From the IMG/VR virus record IMGVR_UViG_3300022752_000076, positions 1-59,716 of that record: a stretch of 59,716 nt of DNA; one strand, 5' to 3'. The stretch is from a virus (Duplodnaviria; Caudoviricetes). This document shows positions 59 through 44,735 of the stretch, piece by piece. The position numbers and the translations under genes were made by a program. The notes below the pieces were generated by a model that saw only the letters and a list, made by a program, of their open reading frames with translations, had not been told where the DNA came from and did not search any database. How positions within the stretch are numbered: the first letter of the stretch is position 1; the number at the start of each line of letters is the position of its first letter.

Positions 59-132
59 TGGCTCCGAGGGAGGGAATCGAACCCCCACTAACGGTTTTGG
101 AGACCGCCGCACTGCCATTATACTACACCGGA
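59..132 (-). tRNA. tRNA-Trp(CCA)
   Basis: Cloverleaf; anticodon arm GCGGT-CTCCAAA-ACCGT, T-loop TTCGATT, encoded CCA. Confidence 0.93.
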
Positions 133-138
133 GTTGTT

Positions 139-215
139 TGGCACACCGTACGGGATTCGAACCCGTGATCTACGCCGTGAAAGGGCGTTGTCCTAGACCG
201 CTAGACGAACGGTGC
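139..215 (-). tRNA. tRNA-Glu(UUC)
   Basis: Cloverleaf; ACGCC-CTTTCAC-GGCGT, GGTTCGAATCC, encoded CCA. Confidence 0.95.
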
Positions 216-3447: not shown

Positions 3448-3930
3448 TTAAACATAAAATATGTGTTTGCCTATTGTACGTATATGCTTTTTATTAGTTC
3501 TCCAATACGGTTTAACATGCTGTGCATGAAAATATAGTGCATTAAAGTTTTCTAGGAAAATTCTTCCGCTAAGAACTCCTTGGGCAATATGTAAAGACGT
3601 CTCCCATTGTTTTGTGTCTAGAATAGCCTGTTTAGGCAACTTAGTCCAGCTAAACTGGTCAGGTTGGTAGACTACACCGCATATAGTCTTGCTAAAATCC
3701 TCTGGATGTTTAACACGGTTTAGGGTTACTTGGGCTACTGCTATTTTTCCTTTATAGCTTTCTCCACGCGCTTCAAAGTAAATGTTTTTTGCTAGGCAGT
3801 TTAGGTCTTGTTTTGTATGTGCTAAGGCATAATAATAGTTTATAGGTGTTTCACCAAATTTTATTGATACTTGTGGGAAAGACAGTAATAGGACAATAAC
3901 ACTAGCTATAAATAGCTGTGCTATGCTCAC
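3448..3930 (-). CDS. SleB-like cell wall hydrolase (Hydrolase_2)
   Basis: CLAKNIYFEARGE, AVAQVTLNRV, QFSW, IGKHIFY; N-terminal signal/TM. Confidence 0.93.
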   Translation of the reverse strand: MSIAQLFIASVIVLLLSFPQVSIKFGETPINYYYALAHTKQDLNCLAKNIYFEARGESYKGKIAVAQVTLNRVKHPEDFSKTICGVVYQPDQFSWTKLPKQAILDTKQWETSLHIAQGVLSGRIFLENFNALYFHAQHVKPYWRTNKKHIRTIGKHIFYV

Positions 3931-6189: not shown

Positions 6190-6373
6190 AACCTACAAAC
6201 CTCTATACCAGGTTTGTAAAGATCTTGGTATAGACATGGATACCATAGATGTTCACGAGTTAACCAAACACATAGATCAGTGCACACACTGTGGTGTTTG
6301 GTCAACCAAACTAATACCAGACTTAGACGATAATCCTATATGTGGCTATTGCGCTAAGTTAATTGGCCTATAA
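6158..6373 (+). CDS. hypothetical Zn-finger protein
   Basis: CTHC...CGYC. Confidence 0.7.
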   Translation: MYTKLKNNLNKTYKPLYQVCKDLGIDMDTIDVHELTKHIDQCTHCGVWSTKLIPDLDDNPICGYCAKLIGL

Positions 6374-6422
6374 AATTTGTCCGAAATTTGTATACAAACT
6401 TCAAACAATTAGATTTTTTAAC

Positions 6423-6451
6423 TTGACCCTAAACCTCCGCCATGATATAAT
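6423..6451 (+). promoter_or_regulatory. sigma70 promoter
   Basis: TTGACC-17-TATAAT with TG extension. Confidence 0.8.
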
Positions 6452-6475
6452 TGTTATTCATTCTAGGAGTTTAAC

Positions 6476-6679
6476 ATGGCAGGTTATACACGAGAATTTT
6501 TAATTGATGCCTACTTATGGCGTTTTACTAAAGTGCCATCAATAGATATTGAGGGGTTATTACGTCTTGAACAAATTGCCAACAAGACCTATGATACATA
6601 TGGCAAAGATAAGTTTCGTGATTATGCATCTCTAGATGCAGAGTATATTCGTAACTATAAGGCAAACCTTAAACGATGA
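6476..6679 (+). CDS. hypothetical protein
   Basis: AGGAG SD. Confidence 0.75.
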   Translation: MAGYTREFLIDAYLWRFTKVPSIDIEGLLRLEQIANKTYDTYGKDKFRDYASLDAEYIRNYKANLKR

Positions 6680-6872: not shown

Positions 6873-6950
6873 GCCCATGTAACCCAATTGGTATGAGGTA
6901 CTTCGCTTAGAACGAAGGTCGTGTCAGTTCGAATCTGACCATGGGTACCA
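6873..6950 (+). tRNA. tRNA-Leu(UAG), short variable loop
   Basis: GCCCATG/CATGGGT acceptor; CTTCG-CTTAGAA-CGAAG; TTCGAAT; ACCA. Confidence 0.9.
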
Positions 6951-10969: not shown

Positions 10970-11054
10970 GGGGATGTGGTGAAACAGGTAGACACAATTG
11001 ACTTAAAATCAATCGCTGAAAGGCGTACCGGTTCGACTCCGGTCTTCCCTACCA
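10970..11054 (+). tRNA. tRNA-Leu(UAA)
   Basis: ATTGA-CTTAAAA-TCAAT, long variable arm, TTCGACT, ACCA. Confidence 0.95.
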
Positions 11055-14093: not shown

Positions 14094-14168
14094 GCTGAAT
14101 TAGCTCAGTGGTAGAGCAACCGCCTTGTAAGCGGTAGGTCATCAGTTCAAATCCGATATTCAGCACCA
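14094..14168 (+). tRNA. tRNA-Thr(UGU)
   Basis: GCTGAAT/ATTCAGC acceptor; ACCGC-CTTGTAA-GCGGT; ACCA. Confidence 0.95.
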
Positions 14169-14169
14169 A

Positions 14170-14496
14170 GTTATAGTTGTATGAAGCTAATAGAAAAGTA
14201 CTGCGGACGCGGGTTCGACTCCCGCCTGGTCCACCAGAAGTATATTGCACTTCACTGATAAGGAAGACTGGTCGGCTGTATTCAACTGGCTAGTGCAGTA
14301 TACTTCTGATGGGCCAGACATGGTTTCGACGGGGTAAAGAGTATTGTAGCAGACAACTCGGCAATGCAGAAGCTGTAGGGTTAGCACTAGCTAGCCGTAG
14401 ACGCAAACAAAATAAATGCCAACGATGAGGTATTTGCCTTAGCAGCATAAGCTAGGCTGGGGTTTAGGCGGTTGACCTTATTAGCCAACAACCGCC
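14170..14496 (+). ncRNA. ssrA: circularly permuted two-piece tmRNA; tag ANDEVFALAA
   Basis: Acceptor piece ends GGACGCGGGTTCGACTCCCGCCTGGTCCACCA (14236); spacer 14237-14310; coding piece starts GGGCCAG...TTCGAC (14311) giving G3-U70; tag ORF 14418-14450; 5' boundary approximate. Confidence 0.93.
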
Positions 14497-14520
14497 ACAC
14501 AACACAACCAAAGGATAAAT

Positions 14521-14730
14521 ATGGAACTAGAGTTTAAACATGCAGGTATGAGTGTTAGTTTTGAGTGTGATGGAGACGATCACTATGATCACGTTGATCT
14601 CCTACACAAGATCGCAGCTCTAGTTGAAGAGCTTGCCAGTCATACAGGCGTTAGTCTTGTAGTAATGAGCGACTATAAAGAATCAGATGAAGATGATAGT
14701 GAACAAGACGACAACAACTGGGAAGATTGA
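14521..14730 (+). CDS. small acidic hypothetical protein
   Basis: AAGGA SD; D/E-rich tail. Confidence 0.7.
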   Translation: MELEFKHAGMSVSFECDGDDHYDHVDLLHKIAALVEELASHTGVSLVVMSDYKESDEDDSEQDDNNWED

Positions 14731-14824: not shown

Positions 14825-14899
14825 GCAGATGTAACTCAACGGTAGAGTGTCAGCCTTCCAAGCTGTTCGTTGCAGGTTCGAGTCCTGTCATCTGCTCCA
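14825..14899 (+). tRNA. tRNA-Gly(UCC)
   Basis: GCAGATG/CATCTGC acceptor; CAGC-CTTCCAA-GCTG; TCCA end. Confidence 0.93.
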
Positions 14900-15519: not shown

Positions 15520-15598
<79 letters not shown>

Positions 15599-35451: not shown

Positions 35452-37416
35452 ATGCAGGTAAGCACACGCGCACAGGTAATTACTCGTCGAACCTATAACA
35501 GGCCCACTAGCGACGACGGTAAACAATTTGAAACATGGGCACAAACAATCAGACGAGTACGTGATCATCAACACTGGCTGTGGGAGCGCAGCGTAGGTCG
35601 TCAGCTATACTTTAATGAAGTAGCCGAACTAGAACAGCTAGAAGAACTAATGCTAGCTAGAAAAGTATTAATGAGTGGGCGCACATTATGGCTAGGTGGT
35701 ACAGCTGTAGCACAAACTCGTGAAGCATCGCAGTTTAATTGTAGCTTTACACAGGTAGAAACAGTATATGATGTAGTTGACGTATTATGGTTGTTGCTAC
35801 AAGGTTGTGGTGTAGGGTTCAAACCCATTGTAGGTACACTTAATGGATTCTCAAAGCCAATCAAAAATATTCAAGTTGTTAAAAGCCAACGAACAGCTAA
35901 GGGCGGACTTGAACACAATGTTGAAACCTGGGATAACAACACAAAAACTTGGACAATACAAGTTGGAGACAGTGCAGAAGCCTGGGCTAAATCTATCGGC
36001 AAGCTCCTTGCTGGCAAATGGCCTGCTGATACTCTTGTGCTTGATTTTAGTCAGCTCAGACCTGCTGGGGAAAGGTTAAAAGGATATGGATGGATTAGCA
36101 GTGGTGACAGTGCTATCTCAAAAGCTTATGTTGCAATTGCCAACATACTTAATGGTAGGGCTGATAGCCTTCTCACTAGGATGGATATTCTGGATATTGT
36201 TAACCATCTCGGAACGATCTTGTCCAGTCGTAGATCGGCTGAAATTGCTCTTTTCGACTATGGTCAACCGGAGTGGGAAGAATTTGCAATAGCTAAAAAA
36301 GATTTTTGGTTGTATGGTCGTGAGCATCGTCAGCAGTCAAATAATAGTCTTGTATTCAAAGAAAAGCCTACTAGAAGTGAATTAAAGCATATATTTAATC
36401 TTATGCAGGAGGCTGGCGGTAGTGAGCCAGGATTTATCAATGAACAAGAAGCTCTTAGACGTGCTCCGTGGTTTAAAGGAGCGAATCCCTGTGTCGAAAT
36501 CTTATTGGGAAACAAAAGCTTCTGTAACCTTACAGAAACGGACATCTCCAAGTTTAAAGGTGATACTGCCGGATTACATGATGCGATCAGACTCGCTGCC
36601 AGGGCAAATTATCGTCAGACCTGTGTTAATCTTAAAGACGGGATCTTACAAGAAGCGTGGCACCTTAACAACTATTTCCTACGTCTCTGCGGGGTTGGTT
36701 TAACAGGTATTGCAATGCGTCCAGATATGAATAGCTATGACTATGAATATCTTAAACGCACGGCAACTAGTGCAGCTATTAGCATGGCGGATGAATTAGG
36801 CCTACCACGTCCTAAAAATGTTACCTGCGTTAAGCCGTCTGGAACATTATCAAAGATCATGGACTGTACAGAAGGCGTGCACAAGCCACTAGGCAAATAC
36901 ATTTTCAATAATGTGCAATTTAGTACTTATGATCCTGTTATTCCACTAATGCGTGAAGCAGGCTATAAAGTAATGAATCATCCAACTGATCCTACTGGCG
37001 TTCTAGTAACATTCCCAGTAGAATGGAAAGATGTACCATTTCATAAGGAAAACGGCAAAGAAGTTAATCTTGAAAGTGCAGTGCATCAACTAGAGCGGTA
37101 CAAAATGTTACAAACTAGTTGGACGCAACAAAATACATCGGTAACTATTAGTTATGACACTAGTGAGGTTAATGATATTATAGATTGGTTGTTGAATAAC
37201 TGGGACTGTTATGTAGGTGTTAGTTTCATCTATAGAACTGATCCAACTAAAACAGCTAAAGATTTAGGGTATTTATACCTACCTCAAGAAGTTGTAGATG
37301 AGTACACGTTTAAACACTATGTACAAGACCTAAAACCTGTTAGTTTAGAAAACGCTAATAGTTTTGACGAATTGTTAGATGATGAGTGCGTTAGCGGAGT
37401 TTGTCCCGTTAAATAA
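35452..37416 (+). CDS. nrdJ: class II (adenosylcobalamin-dependent) ribonucleotide reductase
   Basis: FNCS, GCGVG, NPCVEI, FCNL, KPSGT, C-terminal CVSGVCP; no nrdB nearby. Confidence 0.88.
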   Translation: MQVSTRAQVITRRTYNRPTSDDGKQFETWAQTIRRVRDHQHWLWERSVGRQLYFNEVAELEQLEELMLARKVLMSGRTLWLGGTAVAQTREASQFNCSFTQVETVYDVVDVLWLLLQGCGVGFKPIVGTLNGFSKPIKNIQVVKSQRTAKGGLEHNVETWDNNTKTWTIQVGDSAEAWAKSIGKLLAGKWPADTLVLDFSQLRPAGERLKGYGWISSGDSAISKAYVAIANILNGRADSLLTRMDILDIVNHLGTILSSRRSAEIALFDYGQPEWEEFAIAKKDFWLYGREHRQQSNNSLVFKEKPTRSELKHIFNLMQEAGGSEPGFINEQEALRRAPWFKGANPCVEILLGNKSFCNLTETDISKFKGDTAGLHDAIRLAARANYRQTCVNLKDGILQEAWHLNNYFLRLCGVGLTGIAMRPDMNSYDYEYLKRTATSAAISMADELGLPRPKNVTCVKPSGTLSKIMDCTEGVHKPLGKYIFNNVQFSTYDPVIPLMREAGYKVMNHPTDPTGVLVTFPVEWKDVPFHKENGKEVNLESAVHQLERYKMLQTSWTQQNTSVTISYDTSEVNDIIDWLLNNWDCYVGVSFIYRTDPTKTAKDLGYLYLPQEVVDEYTFKHYVQDLKPVSLENANSFDELLDDECVSGVCPVK

Positions 37417-37451
37417 AAAAAGCCCAGTAGATTGCTCTACTGGGCTTTTTT
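37415..37451. terminator. bidirectional terminator between convergent blocks
   Basis: A run-GCCCAGTAGA-TTGC-TCTACTGGGC-T run. Confidence 0.9.
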
Positions 37452-38098: not shown

Positions 38099-38782
38099 CT
38101 ATTTATATGCTAAAATTATTTGTTTACATAGTTTGCTACGTACAATATCTTCATCACGAAATCTAACAACTTCAATGCCTTCTATACGCTCAAGTCTAGT
38201 TGTTGCGTCTAGGAGTCCACTGTTGCTAATATCGCTTTGATCTTGGTCGCCACTAATTATTATTTTACAGTTTTTACCAATGCGTGACAAGATCATTTTC
38301 ATTTCATCCCTAGTAGCATTTTGTGCTTCGTCAAGTAAAACTATACAATCATCAAATGTAGTTCCACGCATAAATCCTAATGGTTTAGGTTCTATTTGTT
38401 TTTTATTTAGTGCATATTCATAAAACCCACGACCTAGGCTATTAGTAAAGATTTGGTCAAATGGTTCTAAATAAGGAGCATATTTTTCTTCTAGTGTGCC
38501 TGGTAGAAAACCGAGTCCGCGACCAGTTTCTACATTAGGTCTTGTTAGTATAATCTTTTTAACGCGGCGATGAAATAATTCACCTGCTGCGTATGTTGCT
38601 GCTATATAGGTTTTACCAGTGCCTGCGCTACCTATACCAAAGATTATACTGTTTTCATGTATGGCCCTTAAATATTCTTCTTGAATGTAATTTAGTGGTT
38701 TTACATTTTCAAAGCCTATTTCCAGGGGAACAACATTGTCACGTTGTACGCTGCGTAATTTTTTAGCACTGCTCTTGGCCAT
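38099..38782 (-). CDS. phoH: PhoH-family ATPase
   Basis: GSAGTGKT, LGFLPG.LEEK, FMRG.TF, DEAQN, GD..QSD, DIVRS. Confidence 0.96.
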   Translation of the reverse strand: MAKSSAKKLRSVQRDNVVPLEIGFENVKPLNYIQEEYLRAIHENSIIFGIGSAGTGKTYIAATYAAGELFHRRVKKIILTRPNVETGRGLGFLPGTLEEKYAPYLEPFDQIFTNSLGRGFYEYALNKKQIEPKPLGFMRGTTFDDCIVLLDEAQNATRDEMKMILSRIGKNCKIIISGDQDQSDISNSGLLDATTRLERIEGIEVVRFRDEDIVRSKLCKQIILAYK

Positions 38783-38804: not shown

Positions 38805-39053
38805 TTACTTCTTTTCCGGTACTTTGTGACCATCCAATTTTTCGTGTACTTTAACTTCCTTACAAACTTGCTCTGGCTTACCATCTTTGCCAATAACAGG
38901 CTTACCATCTTTTACTTTATCAATACAAGCTTTTTCCTTTTTAGCTGGAGCTTTTTCTTCTTTTTTAGCTGGTTCATCCTTTTTTGCATCTGCTGCATAT
39001 ACTGATCCTGCTAAAAATACTGAAGTTAAAAGTGCTAATAGAATTTTAGTCAT
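38805..39053 (-). CDS. small secreted protein
   Basis: Signal peptide ending VYA; Lys-rich; Cys pair. Confidence 0.75.
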   Translation of the reverse strand: MTKILLALLTSVFLAGSVYAADAKKDEPAKKEEKAPAKKEKACIDKVKDGKPVIGKDGKPEQVCKEVKVHEKLDGHKVPEKK

Positions 39054-39064
39054 ATAGGTTCCTA

Positions 39065-39511
39065 TTATAGTTCTGGAAATGGTTGTTGTGGAGGCGCTGC
39101 TTTGCCACCAAAACCAACAGTTACTTGATTACCACCAGTTGATGGACCTATACTAACACTGCCATTACTGCCTAAGGTAACTGTTGGCATAGGTGTTGGG
39201 CTTGGTGGTTTATCCCAACCTTTATTTGCAGCTTTAAGTGCTTCACGCTGCCCTTCTTTATCACCACTAGCTAACATAATACCACTAAGTGTGCCTGTTA
39301 AAAAAGTAGCAATAGGAATAATTAATTCAAAAAATTTATTATCTACAGGACTCATACCGTTCATAGGTTGAGTAACAAATATTAAGCTGTAGAGAACAAC
39401 AAATACAATACCAAACAGTGTTAGTGCTAATATCATACCAATAAAAAACTTAAGCCTAGCCATTAACTCATCTTCAGTATAGCGCGGGCCTTCCCATAGG
39501 TCTTTAATCAT
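39065..39511 (-). CDS. two-TM membrane protein (possible holin-like)
   Basis: Two TM helices (FIGMILALTLFGIVFVVLYSLIF; IIPIATFLTGTLSGIML) and Pro-rich tail. Confidence 0.7.
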   Translation of the reverse strand: MIKDLWEGPRYTEDELMARLKFFIGMILALTLFGIVFVVLYSLIFVTQPMNGMSPVDNKFFELIIPIATFLTGTLSGIMLASGDKEGQREALKAANKGWDKPPSPTPMPTVTLGSNGSVSIGPSTGGNQVTVGFGGKAAPPQQPFPEL

Positions 39512-39723
39512 CTACAATCCTTTTGAGTTTGAACTGGCAGGGACTTATTAGAGTTATTTACTCTGTCTTTTTCATATGGTGTTAAATCTTCGGGGCAAGT
39601 GCCATTTGCACTGCAATATGGTCGTTTACAAACTTTGTGATCCCAATTATCTGGATTCTGACAAGGATACCTATACATATCACTACAACCGGATAATAGT
39701 ATAGTTAGTAATAATATTCGCAT
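39508..39723 (-). CDS. lipoprotein
   Basis: Lipobox LSGC; RYPCQNP.NW....C..P.C...GTCP. Confidence 0.78.
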   Translation of the reverse strand: MRILLLTILLSGCSDMYRYPCQNPDNWDHKVCKRPYCSANGTCPEDLTPYEKDRVNNSNKSLPVQTQKDCR

Positions 39724-39730
39724 TAGTCAC

Positions 39731-40387
39731 CTACTTATTAGCTAGCGGATTATCAAGTGCCCGTTTAAGATCTTCTGCTAATTTCTTGTCCAAGGCTTTT
39801 AATTTACTATCTACTTCTCTATCTTGAGCACGAAGTTGTTGCTCAGTATTTCTAATTGCTGCACTAACGTCTTTATTTAGTTGTGTACTGGCACTGTCAA
39901 CTTGTTTTTGTGCTGCACGTATTTCAGTTTTAGCCTCTGCTACAGCCTTATCTACATCACGACTAATTTGTTTATTACTGCGCTCTACTTCTTCTACTAC
40001 TTTTTCTAGCCTGCGTATATCACCTTTAAGATCATTTTTAATATCACGAGTATATTCAGCAGTTTTATCACTACCTTCTTGAACAGCTTGAGCAGTTTTT
40101 GTAGCATTTTCTTCAATAACTGCTAGCCGCTTATCAAATTCACTAAAGTCTGGGCTTACATATTCGGCAATTTTTTTCTTCATGCCCATATAATCTTTGT
40201 AAACTTCAAATACACCATATAATCCGCCTAAAGTACTACTAACTATTGTAGCAGCGACCATTAGTTTAGCAGGAGTAAAATCATAGCCGCCTATACTAAT
40301 AACAGTATCTTTGCTAGCATATTTTTTAGCAGCAGCTTCTAGGTCATCAACCTTTTTGTCTAAGTTTACCTTTTCATCACTCATCAT
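39731..40387 (-). CDS. membrane-anchored coiled-coil protein
   Basis: One TM near N-terminus; amphipathic helices; ALDNPL C-terminus. Confidence 0.78.
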   Translation of the reverse strand: MMSDEKVNLDKKVDDLEAAAKKYASKDTVISIGGYDFTPAKLMVAATIVSSTLGGLYGVFEVYKDYMGMKKKIAEYVSPDFSEFDKRLAVIEENATKTAQAVQEGSDKTAEYTRDIKNDLKGDIRRLEKVVEEVERSNKQISRDVDKAVAEAKTEIRAAQKQVDSASTQLNKDVSAAIRNTEQQLRAQDREVDSKLKALDKKLAEDLKRALDNPLANK

Positions 40388-40481
40388 CTTTTTCCTTAAA
40401 TGAAGTTGCTAGTATCCATAAACCAAATATAAATAAAATTACATGTAATAATGCTGTATAGTTTGTATTAACTATTTCCAT
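40377..40481 (-). CDS. single-TM microprotein (34 aa)
   Basis: GAGG SD; MEIVNTNYTALLHVILFIFGLWILATSFKEKDDE. Confidence 0.55.
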   Translation of the reverse strand: MEIVNTNYTALLHVILFIFGLWILATSFKEKDDE

Positions 40482-40482
40482 A

Positions 40483-42210
40483 TTACCTCTTATATTGTTG
40501 ATCAATCATTTGTTGATGCACGCTATCACTACTAAGTTGTCTCAGTACTCTGGAGTTATCAACTATTCGTTGATTTCTGTAAACCTCTTTAACGGGGTAA
40601 AATGAAGCATCTTGTAATACAAAATTTAAGTATTGGTTATATCCAGTAGGAGCAGTAGCCAGTTGAGTTAATGGTATACCTGTTGCTAATTCATTATCAG
40701 TAGTATTAGATTTTATTTGTTGTGTTGTTTGTTTAGTTTCGGTTTCATTAAGTTGAGGTTTTGAGTCAACAATTTGGTTAATTGGGTCTGCCTTATTAGT
40801 TAAAAAATTTTGTTGTTGTGTGGGTACTTCTGTAGTTTGATTAGCAAGTGGATTTATTAGTGCTAATTGATTACCTGGACTAGTATTTTGAGTACTAGTT
40901 TGCTGAATTTGTTGAAAATTAGGTATTATAGTATTTATTGTTTGCTGTACACTTGTAACTTGTTGTAAGCTATTTGTACTAGTACTAGAACTATTAGTTT
41001 TTGGTAGTTCAATTAGTTGAACAGAGTTTATTTGAGTAGATTCTACTACGCCAGGTAGTTGTAGTAGATTAATTTGTTGGTTAGTATTTAATTGAAATAA
41101 ATTTTGTTGATTAATGCTACTACTTTGAAATAATGATAAAGATTGTTCAGTTTTATTTTCTTTTTGTTTAACTTCTGCTTGTAACTGCTGTTGTTGAACT
41201 ATATTCAAATCAAAACTTTGTCTAATACTTCTATTAGCAATTTGCTCGGCTTGACGTAATACTTGCTGACTAACTTTATCAGTCTCATTAATAGCCGTAT
41301 TTGCTACATCTGTTGCTATTGATTGCTCTCGCTGTTGGTTGTCTTGTATTTTAAATAATGTATCAAGTAATCTATCAATGCCATCAAAAGCATATTGCTC
41401 CTCTAACTCTGTATTTCTACCTTCTTGCAAATTTTCTTCAATATATTTTATTGGTTTATTTCCACCACTACTTTGATCACTAGTATAGTCTATATTAGTT
41501 GGCTTAATAGTTGAATTGTCTACTGTATAACTTTCAGAATTTTTTGCTAGCGTTTCCTGAAATTTAGGGCATTCAGGGCTGTACAGTGGATTATTAACAC
41601 AAGGATCTGGTTTATATCGTAGTCTAAAATTAACATTTGTTATTTCTGGACCATAAGGTCCCGTCCAATAGTTATTATCTTTACCACTAAATCCAAATAA
41701 TACATTAGCTAAATCATCCGGTCTACGTCCTTTACTCCAATCTTGCGACCAAGTAAAATCAGTCCAATCGTGTAAAAAATTAAGATTATAACCAAAGTTT
41801 TCTATCCACTTACCGCTTTTAGTATACCCTTGTACATATGCACTTAATTGATCTAAGCTGCCGTTATCCCAACCATTTCCATTTTTACTACGCCAACTAA
41901 ATGTAAATCCAGTAGTAATAAGGCCGCTACCATTATTGGGTAGAGCCTTACTTACATTTACTATCTGATACAATTCAGTATAATTATAGCTAAAATTTAT
42001 ATTACCATCAGGTCGTAGATACGGAGTGCCAGGACTACAATTTGGATCTCCACCTTTCCAACACTCTAAACTGTTAACAAATTTGGCATTTTGCCAAGTA
42101 GATGTTATAGTTGTTGCAGTTGTAGTATTATTTACTAAGTTACCCGTAATGTCTATAGTTTGGGCTGTAGCGGTATTAAATAACAATAGTAGTATAGCCA
42201 GCCATTTCAT
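40483..42210 (-). CDS. secreted protein: aromatic beta-rich N-domain plus Gln/Asn-rich C-region
   Basis: Signal peptide ending ATA; W/Y-rich domain, DPC..NPLYSP.CP; HQQMIDQQY end. Confidence 0.8.
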   Translation of the reverse strand: MKWLAILLLLFNTATAQTIDITGNLVNNTTTATTITSTWQNAKFVNSLECWKGGDPNCSPGTPYLRPDGNINFSYNYTELYQIVNVSKALPNNGSGLITTGFTFSWRSKNGNGWDNGSLDQLSAYVQGYTKSGKWIENFGYNLNFLHDWTDFTWSQDWSKGRRPDDLANVLFGFSGKDNNYWTGPYGPEITNVNFRLRYKPDPCVNNPLYSPECPKFQETLAKNSESYTVDNSTIKPTNIDYTSDQSSGGNKPIKYIEENLQEGRNTELEEQYAFDGIDRLLDTLFKIQDNQQREQSIATDVANTAINETDKVSQQVLRQAEQIANRSIRQSFDLNIVQQQQLQAEVKQKENKTEQSLSLFQSSSINQQNLFQLNTNQQINLLQLPGVVESTQINSVQLIELPKTNSSSTSTNSLQQVTSVQQTINTIIPNFQQIQQTSTQNTSPGNQLALINPLANQTTEVPTQQQNFLTNKADPINQIVDSKPQLNETETKQTTQQIKSNTTDNELATGIPLTQLATAPTGYNQYLNFVLQDASFYPVKEVYRNQRIVDNSRVLRQLSSDSVHQQMIDQQYKR

Positions 42211-43433
42211 CTAAACCAACCTACTGGTTTAACTGTAGTAGGAACTTCGGCTATAGTCTTGTAATCATATTGAGGTATTTTTTGCGGATTAGACGCCCAC
42301 AATTCTTTAGCCTGTTCGCCTATTTTACCTTCATATGGGCAAGGCGTACCAGCAGCTAGCATAGCTTCAAAAATTCTGCGATCCTGACACATAGTAGCTA
42401 CAGCAGCTACCTTCATTCCCATGTCATAAAGAGTTTTACTTAGTTTTAGTCGTTCGCAGTTTAGATCACGCTGTGTTCCACCAAGTGCCATACCTAAAAA
42501 TTGTGTTTGAACGGCCCCACTACTACCAGTTGTACAAAGATCTGCTCCTCCGCCACTCATCATTGCTGGCGCTATTGCTGTAGGAGGTGGCTGTATAACT
42601 CGCTGAGTAATACTAGTTTCGTTAATATTACGATTAGTCATGTCGCCGGTTTGTACATTTTGATTTACGCTGGTACTAGTATTAACATTATTATTTTGAT
42701 TATTACTAGCAGTTATATTAGTATTAATATTACGATTAGTCATGTCGCCAGTTTGTACATTGTTTACTGTGCTATTACTAGTTGTATTATTATTATTGTT
42801 ATATGTCATAGTGCCAGTATTAATATTATTATTTGTATTTACGCTGTTGGTATTATTATTAAATGTTTGTGTACCACTATTAATATTTTCATTTCTAGTA
42901 GTTGTAGTATTAACATTATTATTATTGTATGTCATAGTGCCACTATTAACATTATTATTATTATATGTCATAGTACCACTATTAATATTATTATTGGTAT
43001 TAACGCTAGTAGTATTATTGTTATTATTGTAGGTAACGCTACCACTCATATTGTTGTTATTGTTATAAGTAACGGCTCCACTCATGTTATTGTTGTTATT
43101 ATACGTAACACTGCCACTCATACGATTATCATTAATATTAGTAGCTGTACCACTTTGTATATTGTTATTTGTATTAACATTAGTGCTGGTACTAACATTA
43201 TTATTAGTATTAATGTTATTGCTATTTACAGTACTAGTACTGGTAGCTGTGCTTGTGCTTGTGCTTGTATTATTTGTTGTCACAGTACTGGTGCTAGCAC
43301 TAGTACTATTAGTATCTACTAAGCTACGACCACCATCATAATTGCCTTGGTCAATTAATGGAGGATTTGTTTGAGCTATAGTTGCCGATACTAAGCTGAT
43401 TAAAGTTATTATAAAGGCTAATACTCTTTTCAT
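42207..43433 (-). CDS. secreted Asn-rich repeat protein with Cys-containing C-domain
   Basis: Signal peptide; 12-aa SG(S/T/A)(V/M)TYNNNN repeats; PPPTAIAP..DLC...NCERLKL...MCQD...GTPCP. Confidence 0.85.
   Translation of the reverse strand: MKRVLAFIITLISLVSATIAQTNPPLIDQGNYDGGRSLVDTNSTSASTSTVTTNNTSTSTSTATSTSTVNSNNINTNNNVSTSTNVNTNNNIQSGTATNINDNRMSGSVTYNNNNNMSGAVTYNNNNNMSGSVTYNNNNNTTSVNTNNNINSGTMTYNNNNVNSGTMTYNNNNVNTTTTRNENINSGTQTFNNNTNSVNTNNNINTGTMTYNNNNNTTSNSTVNNVQTGDMTNRNINTNITASNNQNNNVNTSTSVNQNVQTGDMTNRNINETSITQRVIQPPPTAIAPAMMSGGGADLCTTGSSGAVQTQFLGMALGGTQRDLNCERLKLSKTLYDMGMKVAAVATMCQDRRIFEAMLAAGTPCPYEGKIGEQAKELWASNPQKIPQYDYKTIAEVPTTVKPVGWFR
42620..43200 (-). repeat. degenerate ~36-nt coding repeats (Asn-rich)
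   Basis: Recurring (G/C)TCATAGT(G/A)CCACTATTAA and TTATTATTG tracts. Confidence 0.75.
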
Positions 43434-43453
43434 ATTAGTCTCCTTAGACTATT

Positions 43454-44068
43454 TTAGTGGCCTAGTATATGTAAGCAATGCTCGTAGTGCTTTTTCCTAT
43501 CTTCTAAGCCGATTGTTCCGCCATTAATGCGTTTTGTAAGTGTGAGTATGTCACGCTTGTCTGCCCATTGATTTAAATTGTTACTTTCCCAAAACCAGCA
43601 GGCGCTTTGTGCAGCACCTTCAAAGGTTTCCATATATTCTGATGCTTCTTCAGGACTAATCTGCAAACTAGCAGCAAACCAGCTATAGTTTTCTCGACCA
43701 GTTACTTGTATAAGTCCACGCCCGCAAAATCGCCAACCATCGCCCGACTCTTCAGGCCCATTGCCCATGCGGTTAGCATAAACACGATTAGCAATTTTTT
43801 GTGGTTGTTTTTCATATTGCTGCGCCAATGCATCCGTGGGAAAATACTTGGGAAAAACTTTACGCAAGCTTGCCCACTTGTAGTTTAAATTTTCTTTAAT
43901 AAAAACAAAACCACCTGACTCATGTGCACATTGTGCTAAAAACGCTGCTATACGTTCCGCAGTATTAATTTCATATTGAGGTAGTAGTTGCGCTAGTGCA
44001 TCGTGCCAATAGCTAACATATTGATTTTTTGGTATAACTTGTTTTAATTGATCTAGTGTTAATTCCAC
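43454..44068 (-). CDS. endolysin, glycoside hydrolase family 19
   Basis: AAFLAQCAHES, ENLNY, GRGLIQVTGR.NY, SACWFW, TKRINGG. Confidence 0.93.
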   Translation of the reverse strand: MELTLDQLKQVIPKNQYVSYWHDALAQLLPQYEINTAERIAAFLAQCAHESGGFVFIKENLNYKWASLRKVFPKYFPTDALAQQYEKQPQKIANRVYANRMGNGPEESGDGWRFCGRGLIQVTGRENYSWFAASLQISPEEASEYMETFEGAAQSACWFWESNNLNQWADKRDILTLTKRINGGTIGLEDRKKHYEHCLHILGH

Positions 44069-44070
44069 TA

Positions 44071-44328
44071 CTACTCCTTATTAAAAATTCGTTGCTGTGT
44101 TGTATACCACTCTATCCAAGCACTATTATTTCCACTACATATATAATACTCTATGTAGTTTTCTACAACTATTTTAGTTAATTCGCTTAGCTGTACACCA
44201 CTGGGAGCAGTTTTTAATGGCTTGCAATGTTCAAGCAGTGGCTTAGGTGCTTGTGGAAATTGTTGCTTAACAGGCACAGTAGTAGAACAACTTGATAATA
44301 ATAAAACTAATATTAAAAAGTATTTCAT
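44071..44328 (-). CDS. o-spanin (Rz1-like lipoprotein)
   Basis: Lipobox LSSC, Pro-rich, follows i-spanin. Confidence 0.8.
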   Translation of the reverse strand: MKYFLILVLLLSSCSTTVPVKQQFPQAPKPLLEHCKPLKTAPSGVQLSELTKIVVENYIEYYICSGNNSAWIEWYTTQQRIFNKE

Positions 44329-44735
44329 TGTTTTGCTGCCTTATTATGTGCTTCTACTACTGGTTCTGGTATTTTGCAATTTTCATCGTACTTGACAACT
44401 TCGCGATCTACATATTTAATTACTTCACTTCCTTGCAGTCTAACAAGCTCACGCTTAGTAACCACTTTTTCCACGATTTTAGTATTTTCTTTAGCACTTT
44501 CTGCTTGTGCCACTGCTAGTTGCTGTTCAACTTCTTTAACTTTTGCTAACCAATAATTATTATTCCAGTTTGCTCCTGTTAAAAATAAACTAATTACAAG
44601 TAGCACAACGCTAGCATAGTGCAGTAGTTGTACTTGTGGTAAGTTACGAATAAATTTAGTAGCAATAAATACTATAAGACTTAATGCCGCTAAACTAGGA
44701 AATAGCCAATCGGGTAAGAATTGAAGTAAAAACAT
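44325..44735 (-). CDS. i-spanin (Rz-like)
   Basis: N-terminal TMs, coiled coil, C-terminal C.IP....AHN. Confidence 0.78.
   Translation of the reverse strand: MFLLQFLPDWLFPSLAALSLIVFIATKFIRNLPQVQLLHYASVVLLVISLFLTGANWNNNYWLAKVKEVEQQLAVAQAESAKENTKIVEKVVTKRELVRLQGSEVIKYVDREVVKYDENCKIPEPVVEAHNKAAKQ

Follow-up and report, generated by a model that had tools for sequence, protein, structure and literature searches.

The stretch of DNA analysed here, the window, is a linear viral record of 59,716 bases (IMG/VR record IMGVR_UViG_3300022752_000076) with an estimated completeness of 56%. Seven minus-strand open reading frames (ORFs), g1 to g7, fill positions 38805-43433, where the initial annotation had placed them, and two spanin candidates and a GH19-type endolysin gene lie directly upstream. 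As that annotation also had it, the seven genes are tightly packed, with junctions of -11 to +22 nt (4-nt overlaps at g1/g2 and g5/g6), and each encodes a signal peptide, a lipobox or a transmembrane (TM) segment. Our analysis shows that three of them, g1, g2 and g4, form a conserved, exported trio that is linked to holin, endolysin or spanin genes in several unrelated phage lineages. The trio and its parts are as follows.

42207-43433, minus strand: g1, 408 aa, with an N-terminal hydrophobic signal and cysteines at 300, 326, 349 and 365
43374-43433, minus strand: signal peptide of g1 (aa 1-20), a hydrophobic N-terminus
42609-43316, minus strand: Asn/Ser/Thr-rich repeat stalk of g1 (about aa 40-275), with 12-aa units SGxVTYNNNNNx and 34-aa units containing TGDMTNRNIN
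42207-42608, minus strand: conserved C-domain of g1 (aa 276-408), the family hallmark, a mostly helical domain with four Cys, preceded by a PPPTAxAP segment
40483-42210, minus strand: g2, 575 aa, with a short signal peptide, cysteines at 50, 58, 204 and 214, and a Q/N-rich tail
41506-42159, minus strand: N-terminal beta-sandwich of g2 (aa 18-235), a lectin/CBM-like jelly roll with four Cys (AlphaFold2 pLDDT 72-97)
40483-41505, minus strand: remainder of g2, comprising a linker, a long helix, a disordered Q/N-rich region and a C-terminal motif (AlphaFold2 and alignment)
39731-40387, minus strand: g4, a predicted inner-membrane protein of 218 aa, with a 41-aa charged N-tail, one TM segment at about 42-60, a coiled-coil-like helical region rich in K, A, E and D, and a DNPLAN(K) end

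Are the seven genes a single system? Relatives were collected by a search with the g1 C-domain, which hit 204 viral contigs (the best 80 were used), and one with g2, which hit 17. BLAST over 102 loci, a set in which six public phage loci are included and some contigs are represented by more than one overlapping fetch, found g1 in 101, g2 in 95, g4 in 92, g5 and g6 in 45 each, the endolysin in 34, each spanin-like gene in 20, g7 in 19 and g3 in 5. The set was collapsed to 74 distinct loci, fetched with g1 or g2 at +/-8 kb and many of them stopping at a contig edge, and all their ORFs were clustered. By this count g1 is present in 74, g2 in 73 and g4 in 69, always in the same order and on the same strand; the other recurrent neighbours are a DUF4337 gene (38), g6 (32), g5 (30) and a gene for a tail-anchored protein (17) with its small partner (14). 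All seven genes occur together in close relatives only. Because co-occurrence is patchy and g5-g6 is also found without g1, the seven do not make one fixed system, and gene content points instead to separate units: the trio g1-g2-g4, the pair g5-g6, and the lineage-specific g3 and g7. The expectation that the genes would recur together in other phages thus holds for the core genes, which many aquatic phages carry, and fails for the seven as a whole. The best reading of the region is an extended lysis-cassette neighbourhood assembled from such units.

The trio is widespread. Contigs that bear it run from 5 kb to 354 kb and include podovirus-sized, T4-like and jumbo-sized ones. Run against 1.84 billion proteins at the 50% identity level, the g1 C-domain profile matched 1670 representatives at E<=0.001 (642 at <=1e-10, 113 at <=1e-30), the best 150 of which are mostly 100-340 aa long. 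In a 90%-identity library, 7998 of 8000 scored candidates among proteins of 73-237 aa matched the domain, and the 120 g1-family rows listed from that library are all unnamed or 'hypothetical' and have no Pfam domain. A search of 50,697 phage records gave 13 g1 matches: six Pelagibacter phages, two roseophages, Ralstonia phage RSP15 (filed twice) and three uncultured phages. Among 185,579 prokaryote species, each represented by one genome, there were 23, all on contigs of metagenome-assembled genomes or bins, with labels from Actinomycetota to Methanobacteriota. Since this incoherent taxonomy resembles that of mis-binned phage contigs, the g1 family appears to be confined to phage-like sequence. 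Searches of g1-g7 against Pfam, NCBIfam and PDB sequences were empty or returned noise, and in PHROGs only families of unknown function matched, for g1 and g6; the statement of the initial annotation that no named system has this make-up is borne out. No description of the trio was found in the full-text literature, a search that left aside supplementary tables, including the gene-family tables of Wittmers et al. (2022, PMC9599517), which might list these genes.

Which genes, then, does the trio travel with? In the window the adjacent lysis genes are these.

44325-44735, minus strand: 136-aa Rz-like candidate for the inner-membrane spanin, in which a helical region comes after two TM-like segments (phrog_2536 Rz-like spanin, 1.7e-5; phrog_4952, 1.5e-10)
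44071-44328, minus strand: outer-membrane spanin candidate, an 85-aa lipoprotein with lipobox LSSC and weak to moderate Rz1/LysC and spanin matches
43454-44068, minus strand: GH19-type endolysin, 204 aa (phrog_181 endolysin, 3.2e-76; Glyco_hydro_19, 0.0024)

The lipoprotein falls just under the Pfam cut-off for LysC (1.2e-5, 25.5 bits; cut-off 27) and matches phrog_456 (Rz-like spanin) at 6.9e-5, and a sequence scan of the endolysin found no signal, no signal-arrest-release (SAR) segment and no TM-like segment. The TM-like segments of the Rz-like protein are at residues 6-30 and 32-56, where a single TM is usual. A cassette of the window type (Rz-like gene, lipoprotein, GH19 endolysin) stands directly upstream of g1 in 10 of the 74 distinct loci.

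Other lineages link the trio to lysis genes in different arrangements. In the small genomes of the P0136-type lineage g1 and g2b are followed by a 131-aa TM coiled-coil protein that ends in NPLNN, then by a holin-like protein with three TM segments (phrog_6637; GTA_holin_3TM 0.011, with 1.6e-5 for its relative in Mosig) and Phage_lysozyme; the short g4-like gene is missing from part of these loci, where the holin-like gene comes directly after g2b. The holin-like gene and the lysozyme lie on the same strand within 5 kb downstream in all 33 loci that could be evaluated, the other 47 of 80 being too short. The P0147-type order begins with g1, g2c, g4 and a 2-TM protein; next comes a GTA_holin_3TM holin (8.4e-19) or else an Rz-like pair (phrog_739, 2.8e-13; phrog_812, 1.8e-11), and then Phage_lysozyme (2.6e-5). 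Of the 35 loci, 11 were too short to evaluate, and 18 of the other 24 have a lysis gene within 5 kb. HTVC023P has gp45 (g1), gp46, gp47, gp48 (a TM coiled-coil protein ending DNPLAQ) and the M15 endolysin gp49 (phrog_894, 4.8e-42), so that the g4-like gene abuts the endolysin gene. In Mosig the GTA_holin_3TM gene, whose match is above the cut-off, is directly upstream of g1. MW202481 carries g1, a gene at the g2 position whose public label is 'tonB', one further gene, a holin-like gene and an endolysin (phrog_7, 1.2e-46); HTVC033P has an amidase gene (phrog_822, 8.8e-55) three genes upstream of g1; and in MW202675 g1 is followed, further on, by a g4-like gene, g5, g6, a nuclease gene and a GH19 endolysin gene. 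The endolysins of these three records are verified ones, at a distance of two to three genes. In all, about six separate lineages show the linkage.

From this context and from the architecture of the proteins, we propose, with a probability of about 0.5, that the trio (with g3 inserted in the window) is an undescribed accessory unit of phage lysis cassettes. It would belong to a familiar type of system, the multigene lysis cassette, and is not described in the literature searched. Among the purposes offered in the initial annotation, lysis control is the one that gene context favours.

Several observations weigh against this proposal. The trio has no homology to any protein of known lysis function, and the cassettes that carry it already hold holin, endolysin and spanin candidates, with no essential step visibly missing. 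Accessory 'moron' genes, such as lambda bor, lodge beside lysis cassettes, so adjacency to lysis genes is no proof of function. Nor are the 33 P0136-type loci 33 independent events, since loci within a lineage are related; the independent support is the six or so lineages. In the majority of T4-like and jumbo relatives the trio has no recognised lysis gene at its side (T4-like genomes have their lysis genes dispersed), and no verified one stands beside it in HTVC115P, HTVC202P, uvMED-S28-C10, CRP-810 or RSP15. A GH19 endolysin gene is present anywhere within +/-8 kb in 20 of the 74 loci, in a search made with the window's own lysis genes only, by which other endolysin types could be missed; about 17 of the 74 carry a conserved gene of ~830 aa on the opposite strand instead. 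The annotation of CRP-810 names an 'OmpA family' protein (gp53, L104 4824-5579) and a 'lysozyme' (gp51, 6210-6632). The former is homologous to g1, and the latter has a match of 8.6e-5 to the g4 profile; neither label was confirmed by Pfam or PHROGs, and CRP-810 was accordingly not counted as lysis-linked.

The best conserved member of the set is g4, with a mean column identity of 62% over 38 sequences. Conservation covers the 41-aa N-tail, the TM segment, a juxtamembrane segment FEVYKDYMGMKKKI..Y..PD and the C-terminal DNPLAN, in which D212, N213, P214, L215 and N217 are invariant in the same 38 sequences. HTVC115P gp49 matches at 2.7e-42, and short versions of 113-142 aa, consisting of a TM segment, a coiled coil and (D/K)NPL, follow g2 in HTVC023P, HTVC202P, Mosig and the P0136-type lineage. 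Because the long charged N-tail has no signal sequence, we infer that the N-terminus is inside and the coiled coil in the periplasm (N-in/C-out).

This architecture is that of an inner-membrane spanin (i-spanin), and it raises an alternative that overlaps with the accessory-unit proposal: the trio could be a spanin analogue, with g4 as the inner-membrane part and g1 and g2 as the outer part, supplying the last lysis step where there are no recognisable spanins. In the P0136-type lineage and in HTVC023P no spanin-like lipoprotein was seen beside the holin and endolysin genes, in an inspection that was not a systematic spanin search, and g4 has a weak, non-significant match to phrog_7686 (Rz-like spanin, 0.0067). 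We nevertheless think this quite unlikely. The trio shares its cassette with spanin candidates, an Rz-like pair, both in the window and in the P0147-type lineage, and is therefore not just a substitute for spanins; neither g1 nor g2 is a lipoprotein; and the short g4-like gene is absent from part of the P0136-type loci.

A comparison can also be drawn with two-component spanins of the lambda Rz/Rz1 type. Like Rz, g4 is apparently bitopic in the inner membrane, has a long helical periplasmic part and is encoded in a lysis cassette, and in the window it is directly followed by g5, a small lipoprotein containing Cys and Pro. Unlike Rz, it has the conserved 41-aa tail, predicted to be cytoplasmic, and the invariant DNPLAN end, and it travels with g1 and g2 rather than with g5, from which other genes often separate it. 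We considered g5 as the outer-membrane spanin of g4 and rejected it: g5 pairs with g6, it is present in 30 distinct loci as against 69 for g4, and 3 of its 26 distinct homologues lack the Cys for a lipid anchor.

Two other lysis systems offer parallels. The T4 lysis-inhibition pair consists of the holin T and the periplasmic antiholin RI, and the trio may be analogous to it in topology and in periplasmic timing control, with a single-TM lysis protein that has a large periplasmic domain and with small secreted partners. The differences are that g4 has no Pfam similarity to Phage_holin_T or to other holin families, that its periplasmic part is a predicted coiled coil and not globular, that it has two partners, one of them lectin-like, and that several cassettes contain separate holin candidates. 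The second parallel is the Mu releasin gp25 (DUF2730), to which Chamblee et al. (2022, PMC9239132) ascribe an N-out/C-in topology, a cytoplasmic domain and hardly any periplasmic part. In that account gp25, like g4, is a small single-TM accessory protein encoded a few genes from the endolysin and outside the holin, endolysin and spanin classes; g4 differs in its predicted N-in/C-out orientation, and the window endolysin differs in having no SAR segment. A Mu-type releasin was rejected as an identity for g4, since neither g4, nor the short g4-like proteins, nor the uvMED gene annotated as DUF2730 matches PF10805 (DUF2730), and since the charged N-tail argues for N-in.

The second protein of the trio, g2, combines a probable binding domain with a rod. 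AlphaFold2, given 40 homologues, drew a confident beta-sandwich at 20-225, a helix at 278-346, some 200 disordered Q/N-rich residues and a short conserved C-terminal part. This last contains the motif ...FYPxKExYRNQ..VDN.R.LRQL.SD..HQ.M..QQY (about aa 520-575; invariant or near-invariant columns at 506-573), and over its final 53 aa alone the most distant relatives show 48% identity. Foldseek found 70 PDB matches to the head at E<=0.001, the top ones being the sugar-binding domains of Fbs1/Fbs2 (E 5e-7 to 3e-6), followed by CBM families 4, 6, 11, 15, 22 and 35; over the whole group E is 5e-7 to 5e-4 and the target-normalised TM score 0.4-0.55. Among the 49 PDB matches listed for g2 there was no pilus chaperone. 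A protein-atlas lead, DUF642/FBA, agrees with Foldseek. The confident model and these matches show the beta-sandwich of carbohydrate-binding jelly rolls, and we regard the head as lectin-like, that is, as a predicted domain of glycan-binding type. It differs from the known domains in that identity is merely 9-18% and Pfam gives no match, and in being carried, in a phage lysis-cassette context, with a signal peptide and a long disordered Q/N-rich rod.

Genes at the g2 position in other lineages encode different heads: that of HTVC202P weakly matches CBM_4_9, and that of the P0136-type lineage is made of Cys-rich repeats. Several products of these genes share a related tail end, ...H..(M/L)(V/I)(D/E).Q(Y/W)(K/R). 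Positional equivalents in the 50,697 phage records are too divergent to be recovered, as neither tblastn with g2 nor the g2 hidden Markov model detected them.

A head of this kind would also suit superinfection exclusion or receptor masking, in which g2, held by g1 and g4, would bind a surface or periplasmic glycan and either block other phages or stop progeny from sticking to debris, its place beside lysis genes then reflecting late co-expression. The fold is also found in phage tail fibres and tailspikes, and the viral structure library returned tail-fibre-type domains along with uncharacterised homologues; lineages swap the head and retain the tail, the pattern to be expected of a host-specific binder; and the small-genome lineages place the trio between tail-fibre-like and lysis genes. 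Known exclusion proteins, moreover, are often single exported proteins or lipoproteins encoded near lysis or tail genes, among them T4 Sp and Imm, T5 Llp and Cor. We still regard exclusion as unlikely. No similarity was found between the g2 head and the phage's own tail-fibre proteins (by BLAST and profile, nothing below E 0.1 except g2 itself), the greatest conservation lies in the g1 C-domain and g4 rather than in the binder, and in several lineages, for instance at HTVC023P gp48/gp49, the genes are tightly coupled in translation to endolysin or holin genes. We also know of no three-gene exclusion system of such make-up.

The third protein, g1, is conserved only over its final ~130 residues, with 50 invariant columns in an alignment of 35 sequences. 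This C-domain matches phrog_20531 at 5.3e-12 and is 52-57% identical to those of the six Pelagibacter phages. A hydrophobic h-region is present at the N-terminus in 62 of the 66 distinct homologues that start with M, and 22 of 62 full-length homologues are probably membrane-anchored, since they have a hydrophobic C-terminal tail. In the AlphaFold2 model the helices at 333-381 reach a pLDDT of ~85 and the remainder stays below 65. Foldseek found no PDB neighbour of the model (best E 2.7), and the C-domain profile had 0 matches to PDB sequences at E<=1.

The repeats noticed earlier in g1 are indeed there, and are tandem at the DNA level. Tandem Repeats Finder reported a period of 36 nt at 42908-42995 (2.4 copies, 94% matches) and 43013-43143 (3.7 copies), and one of 102 nt at 42622-42833 and 42851-43046. 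The initial annotation took them as the leading element of the region, with g1 as an Asn-ladder functional amyloid or fibre subunit and the remaining six genes devoted, after the manner of curli or Fap systems, to secreting and assembling it. Within the freshwater lineage the 12-aa unit is conserved in sequence as well as in composition (consensus ...SGxVTYNNNNVNSGTxTYNNNN...), and the stalks there contain 25-34% Asn; AlphaFold2 draws the repeats as short, weak beta strands; and phage-borne curli modules do exist (Wittmers et al. 2022, PMC9599517). Even so, we consider the amyloid reading very improbable. Among 73 distinct homologues the stalk ranges from 0 to ~550 aa and its Asn content from 0 to 34%, so the repeat is not a conserved, indispensable core: five stalk-less forms of 154-157 aa, with 0% Asn before the C-domain, occur in the same g1-g2-g4(-g5-g6) context, and marine relatives have short S/T linkers in its place. 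Six public phage forms have 3-12% Asn and 14-38% Ser+Thr in this region. The AlphaFold check that had been suggested for an Asn-ladder fold gave a low-confidence model of the repeats (pLDDT 50-63) and no structural match. A six-frame search of the window (an estimated 56% of the genome) with the Curlin repeat family (PF07012), and searches with CsgG (PF03783) and CsgF (PF10614), gave no match at E<=1; none of the amyloid families in Pfam is matched by g1-g7, hmmscan of g1 yielding just New_glue at 0.0031, under the cut-off; and none of the seven is a candidate outer-membrane pore.

Since homologues span everything from no repeat to ~550 aa in one and the same context, the Asn repeat is better described as a stalk, a putative spacer of drifting length rather than the functional core. 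Some structural role is possible in the freshwater lineage because the sequence of the unit is conserved there. In metagenome data, contigs from X1 and X2 are identical to 41900-43541 and may derive from the source sample. There is also a weak hint that repeat length varies: assembled contigs of four out of four runs show skips or back-steps within the g1 repeats (in three of the four, a replacement from 43031 to 43171), at joints detected at 90% likeness with short flanks, which relatives or the repeats themselves may cause.

No phage 'amyloid' system other than the curli module has been published, and that module invites comparison. According to the text of Wittmers et al. (PMC9599517), the T8SS (type VIII secretion) module of pelagiphages comprises HK, CsgF, CsgG, CsgA/B, FecR and adenylate cyclase genes and was traced to Alphaproteobacteria, and newly recovered genomes hold auxiliary metabolic genes absent from cultivated HTVC023P-type phages, the T8SS being among the most notable. 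As there described, the module resembles the present region in being a multigene exported set found in podo- and myovirus-type SAR11 phages and passed between phage families, and in its adenylate cyclase, a cyclase gene (Guanylate_cyc 4.9e-10) being found near the trio in some relatives. It differs in gene set, none of the three Csg families searched being present in the window, and in origin, the g1 family being found in no isolate genome. HTVC023P has g1-g2-g4, whereas HTVC023P-type phages lack the T8SS by that account, and with no Csg match in the window the two must be different things. An Asn-rich repeat of this kind should not be named amyloid or curli in annotation.

The export signals bear on one more alternative, that these are ordinary virion or ejection proteins whose hydrophobic N-termini have been misread. 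The genes do lie downstream of tail-fibre genes on the same strand, and the fold of the g2 head occurs in tail proteins. This is hardly credible, however, given signals of the cleavable type in nearly all g1 homologues and visible ones in the listed g2 homologues, a set that includes a lipobox protein and polytopic and bitopic membrane proteins, and the absence of any match to a PHROG structural family other than coiled-coil noise for g4. The initial annotation was thus right to favour envelope proteins over virion parts.

How might an accessory lysis unit of this composition work? We suggest that g4 would sit in the inner membrane with its N-terminus in the cytoplasm and its coiled coil reaching into the periplasm, where the juxtamembrane segment and the DNPLAN tip could dock the secreted partners g1 and g2. 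The former would be a disulfide-stabilised helical domain on a freely variable stalk, with a C-terminal membrane anchor of its own in roughly one relative in three, and the latter a lectin-like head, exchanged between lineages, on a long flexible rod with a C-terminal docking motif. The resulting glycan-binding periplasmic complex may act late in infection, timing or aiding the breakdown of the envelope, for example by engaging peptidoglycan or outer-envelope glycans once the holin fires. A complex prediction for the g1 C-domain, the periplasmic part of g4 and the C-terminal 76 aa of g2 (score 0.00, mark 0.32, run without controls) speaks neither for nor against binding.

Lysis of Gram-negative hosts is taught as three steps, carried out by holin, endolysin and spanin, with antiholins, releasin and disruptin as add-ons. 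The trio is a candidate for a further step; it has no named family, and its hallmark domain is very common in aquatic metagenomes. A bolder and distinctly tentative proposal is that it represents a fourth functional class of phage lysis proteins: an inner-membrane-anchored, glycan-reading periplasmic complex that senses or engages the cell wall or outer envelope and so sets when or where the envelope yields and that, in some abundant ocean and lake phages including those of SAR11, stands in for spanins that have not been found. Mu gp25 would be a precedent for such a class (PMC9239132). Among the carriers are cultured phages of SAR11, the surface ocean's most abundant bacteria, and the manner and timing of host lysis by such phages matter for the carbon released in lakes and oceans. 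The candidate set is now defined: g1, g2 and g4, plus g5-g6 as a holin-like unit.

The remaining four genes of the block are listed here.

40377-40481, minus strand: g3, a single-TM peptide of 34 aa from ATG (42 aa from an upstream TTG, start 40505)
39508-39723, minus strand: g5, a 71-aa Cys-rich lipoprotein with an LSGC lipobox, 6 Cys and the motif YRYPCQNPDNW...C..PYC
39065-39511, minus strand: g6, a holin-like candidate of 148 aa, an inner-membrane protein that has two TM segments and a tail that is charged or rich in Pro
38805-39053, minus strand: g7, an 82-aa secreted protein rich in K, E, P and A, with a signal peptide and a Cys pair at 43/64

Judged by its 5 relatives in the 102 loci, and by the other small TM peptides (clusters c65 and c77) that take the same place elsewhere, g3 reads as variable filler between g2 and g4. 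The 19 loci with g7 are all close relatives that also bear the adjacent PhoH-like gene described below, and g3 and g7 are both taken to be lineage-specific small envelope proteins.

The pair g5-g6 has a distribution of its own, g5 being always directly upstream of g6. Among the 26 distinct g5 homologues, 18 have a strict lipobox and 3 have LFGC, and in 3 the Cys is absent there. The g6 protein matches phrog_25359, a PHROG of unknown function, at 1.7e-18, and its homologues have K/D/A-rich tails. The pair stands directly upstream of GH19 endolysin genes in MW202462, where g1 is absent, and in MW202675; in the window g6 is 4 kb from the endolysin gene. No holin family in Pfam or PHROGs matches g6, and none was recognised elsewhere in the cassette in the available 56% of the genome. 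We take g6 to be the best holin candidate of the window's cassette, and together with g5 it could form the holin-type unit.

Other membrane proteins recur near these genes. A DUF4337 protein (Pfam 2.7e-30; for example L013:14715-15245, plus strand) is encoded just upstream of g5-g6 in 38 of the 74 distinct loci; in the closest relatives its gene lies between g4 and g5, and it has been lost from the window. In the marine lineage a shorter 2-TM protein (phrog_27150) follows g4 at this position. The class III adenylate/guanylate-cyclase gene mentioned above (cluster c14) is found a few genes from the trio in 13 related loci and is absent from the window; an example is L018:10930-12159 (minus strand), with a TM gene of 57-62 aa alongside (clusters c13/c14). 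Mosig_00199 (L004:4318-4746), after the g4-like gene, encodes a tail-anchored coiled-coil protein of the unknown-function family DUF7201 (Pfam 1.9e-17). A similar tail-anchored protein, of cluster c9 (phrog_32327), is found with the trio in 17 freshwater loci, and in MW202462 it comes before g5-g6 and the endolysin.

The whole right arm of the window is read on the minus strand, and the features that flank the lysis genes and the seven-gene block are as follows.

47.5-59.7 kb, minus strand: tail-fibre-type genes, the most upstream part of the arm
between the tail-fibre-type genes and the spanin candidates, minus strand: a 2OG-Fe oxygenase gene and two genes of sugar-modification type
38099-38782, minus strand: PhoH-like gene, 227 aa, with a Walker A motif, the first gene downstream of g7
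37416-37451, strand not applicable: bidirectional terminator-like hairpin with a 16-bp stem, 6 GC pairs and T runs on both sides

The 227-aa product reads as PhoH-like from its Walker A motif, and the gene is syntenic in 18 of the 102 loci. One further gene follows before the hairpin, which parts the minus-strand arm from the plus-strand replication block. Between the endolysin gene and the PhoH-like gene no terminator-like site above chance level was found, so that a single transcription unit across this block is plausible. The sequencing runs that match the region (n=20, from 12 studies) are all DNA-type metagenomes of lake, freshwater or other aquatic origin, with no RNA run among them.

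Elsewhere in the window there is a phage-borne tmRNA at 14112-14541 on the plus strand (Rfam beta_tmRNA 103 bits, tmRNA_permuted 118 bits), for which ARAGORN gives the tag peptide ANDEVFALAA; being of betaproteobacterial type, it hints at a betaproteobacterial host. Seven tRNA genes were found, at 59-215 (minus strand) and at 6873-6950, 10970-11054, 14094-14168, 14825-14899 and 15520-15598 (plus strand). Finally, positions 3448-3930 on the minus strand encode a 160-aa protein with an N-terminal hydrophobic signal and the motif ...NIYFEARGES..., which we take to recall SleB-type cell-wall hydrolases; this could be a second wall-active enzyme of the phage.

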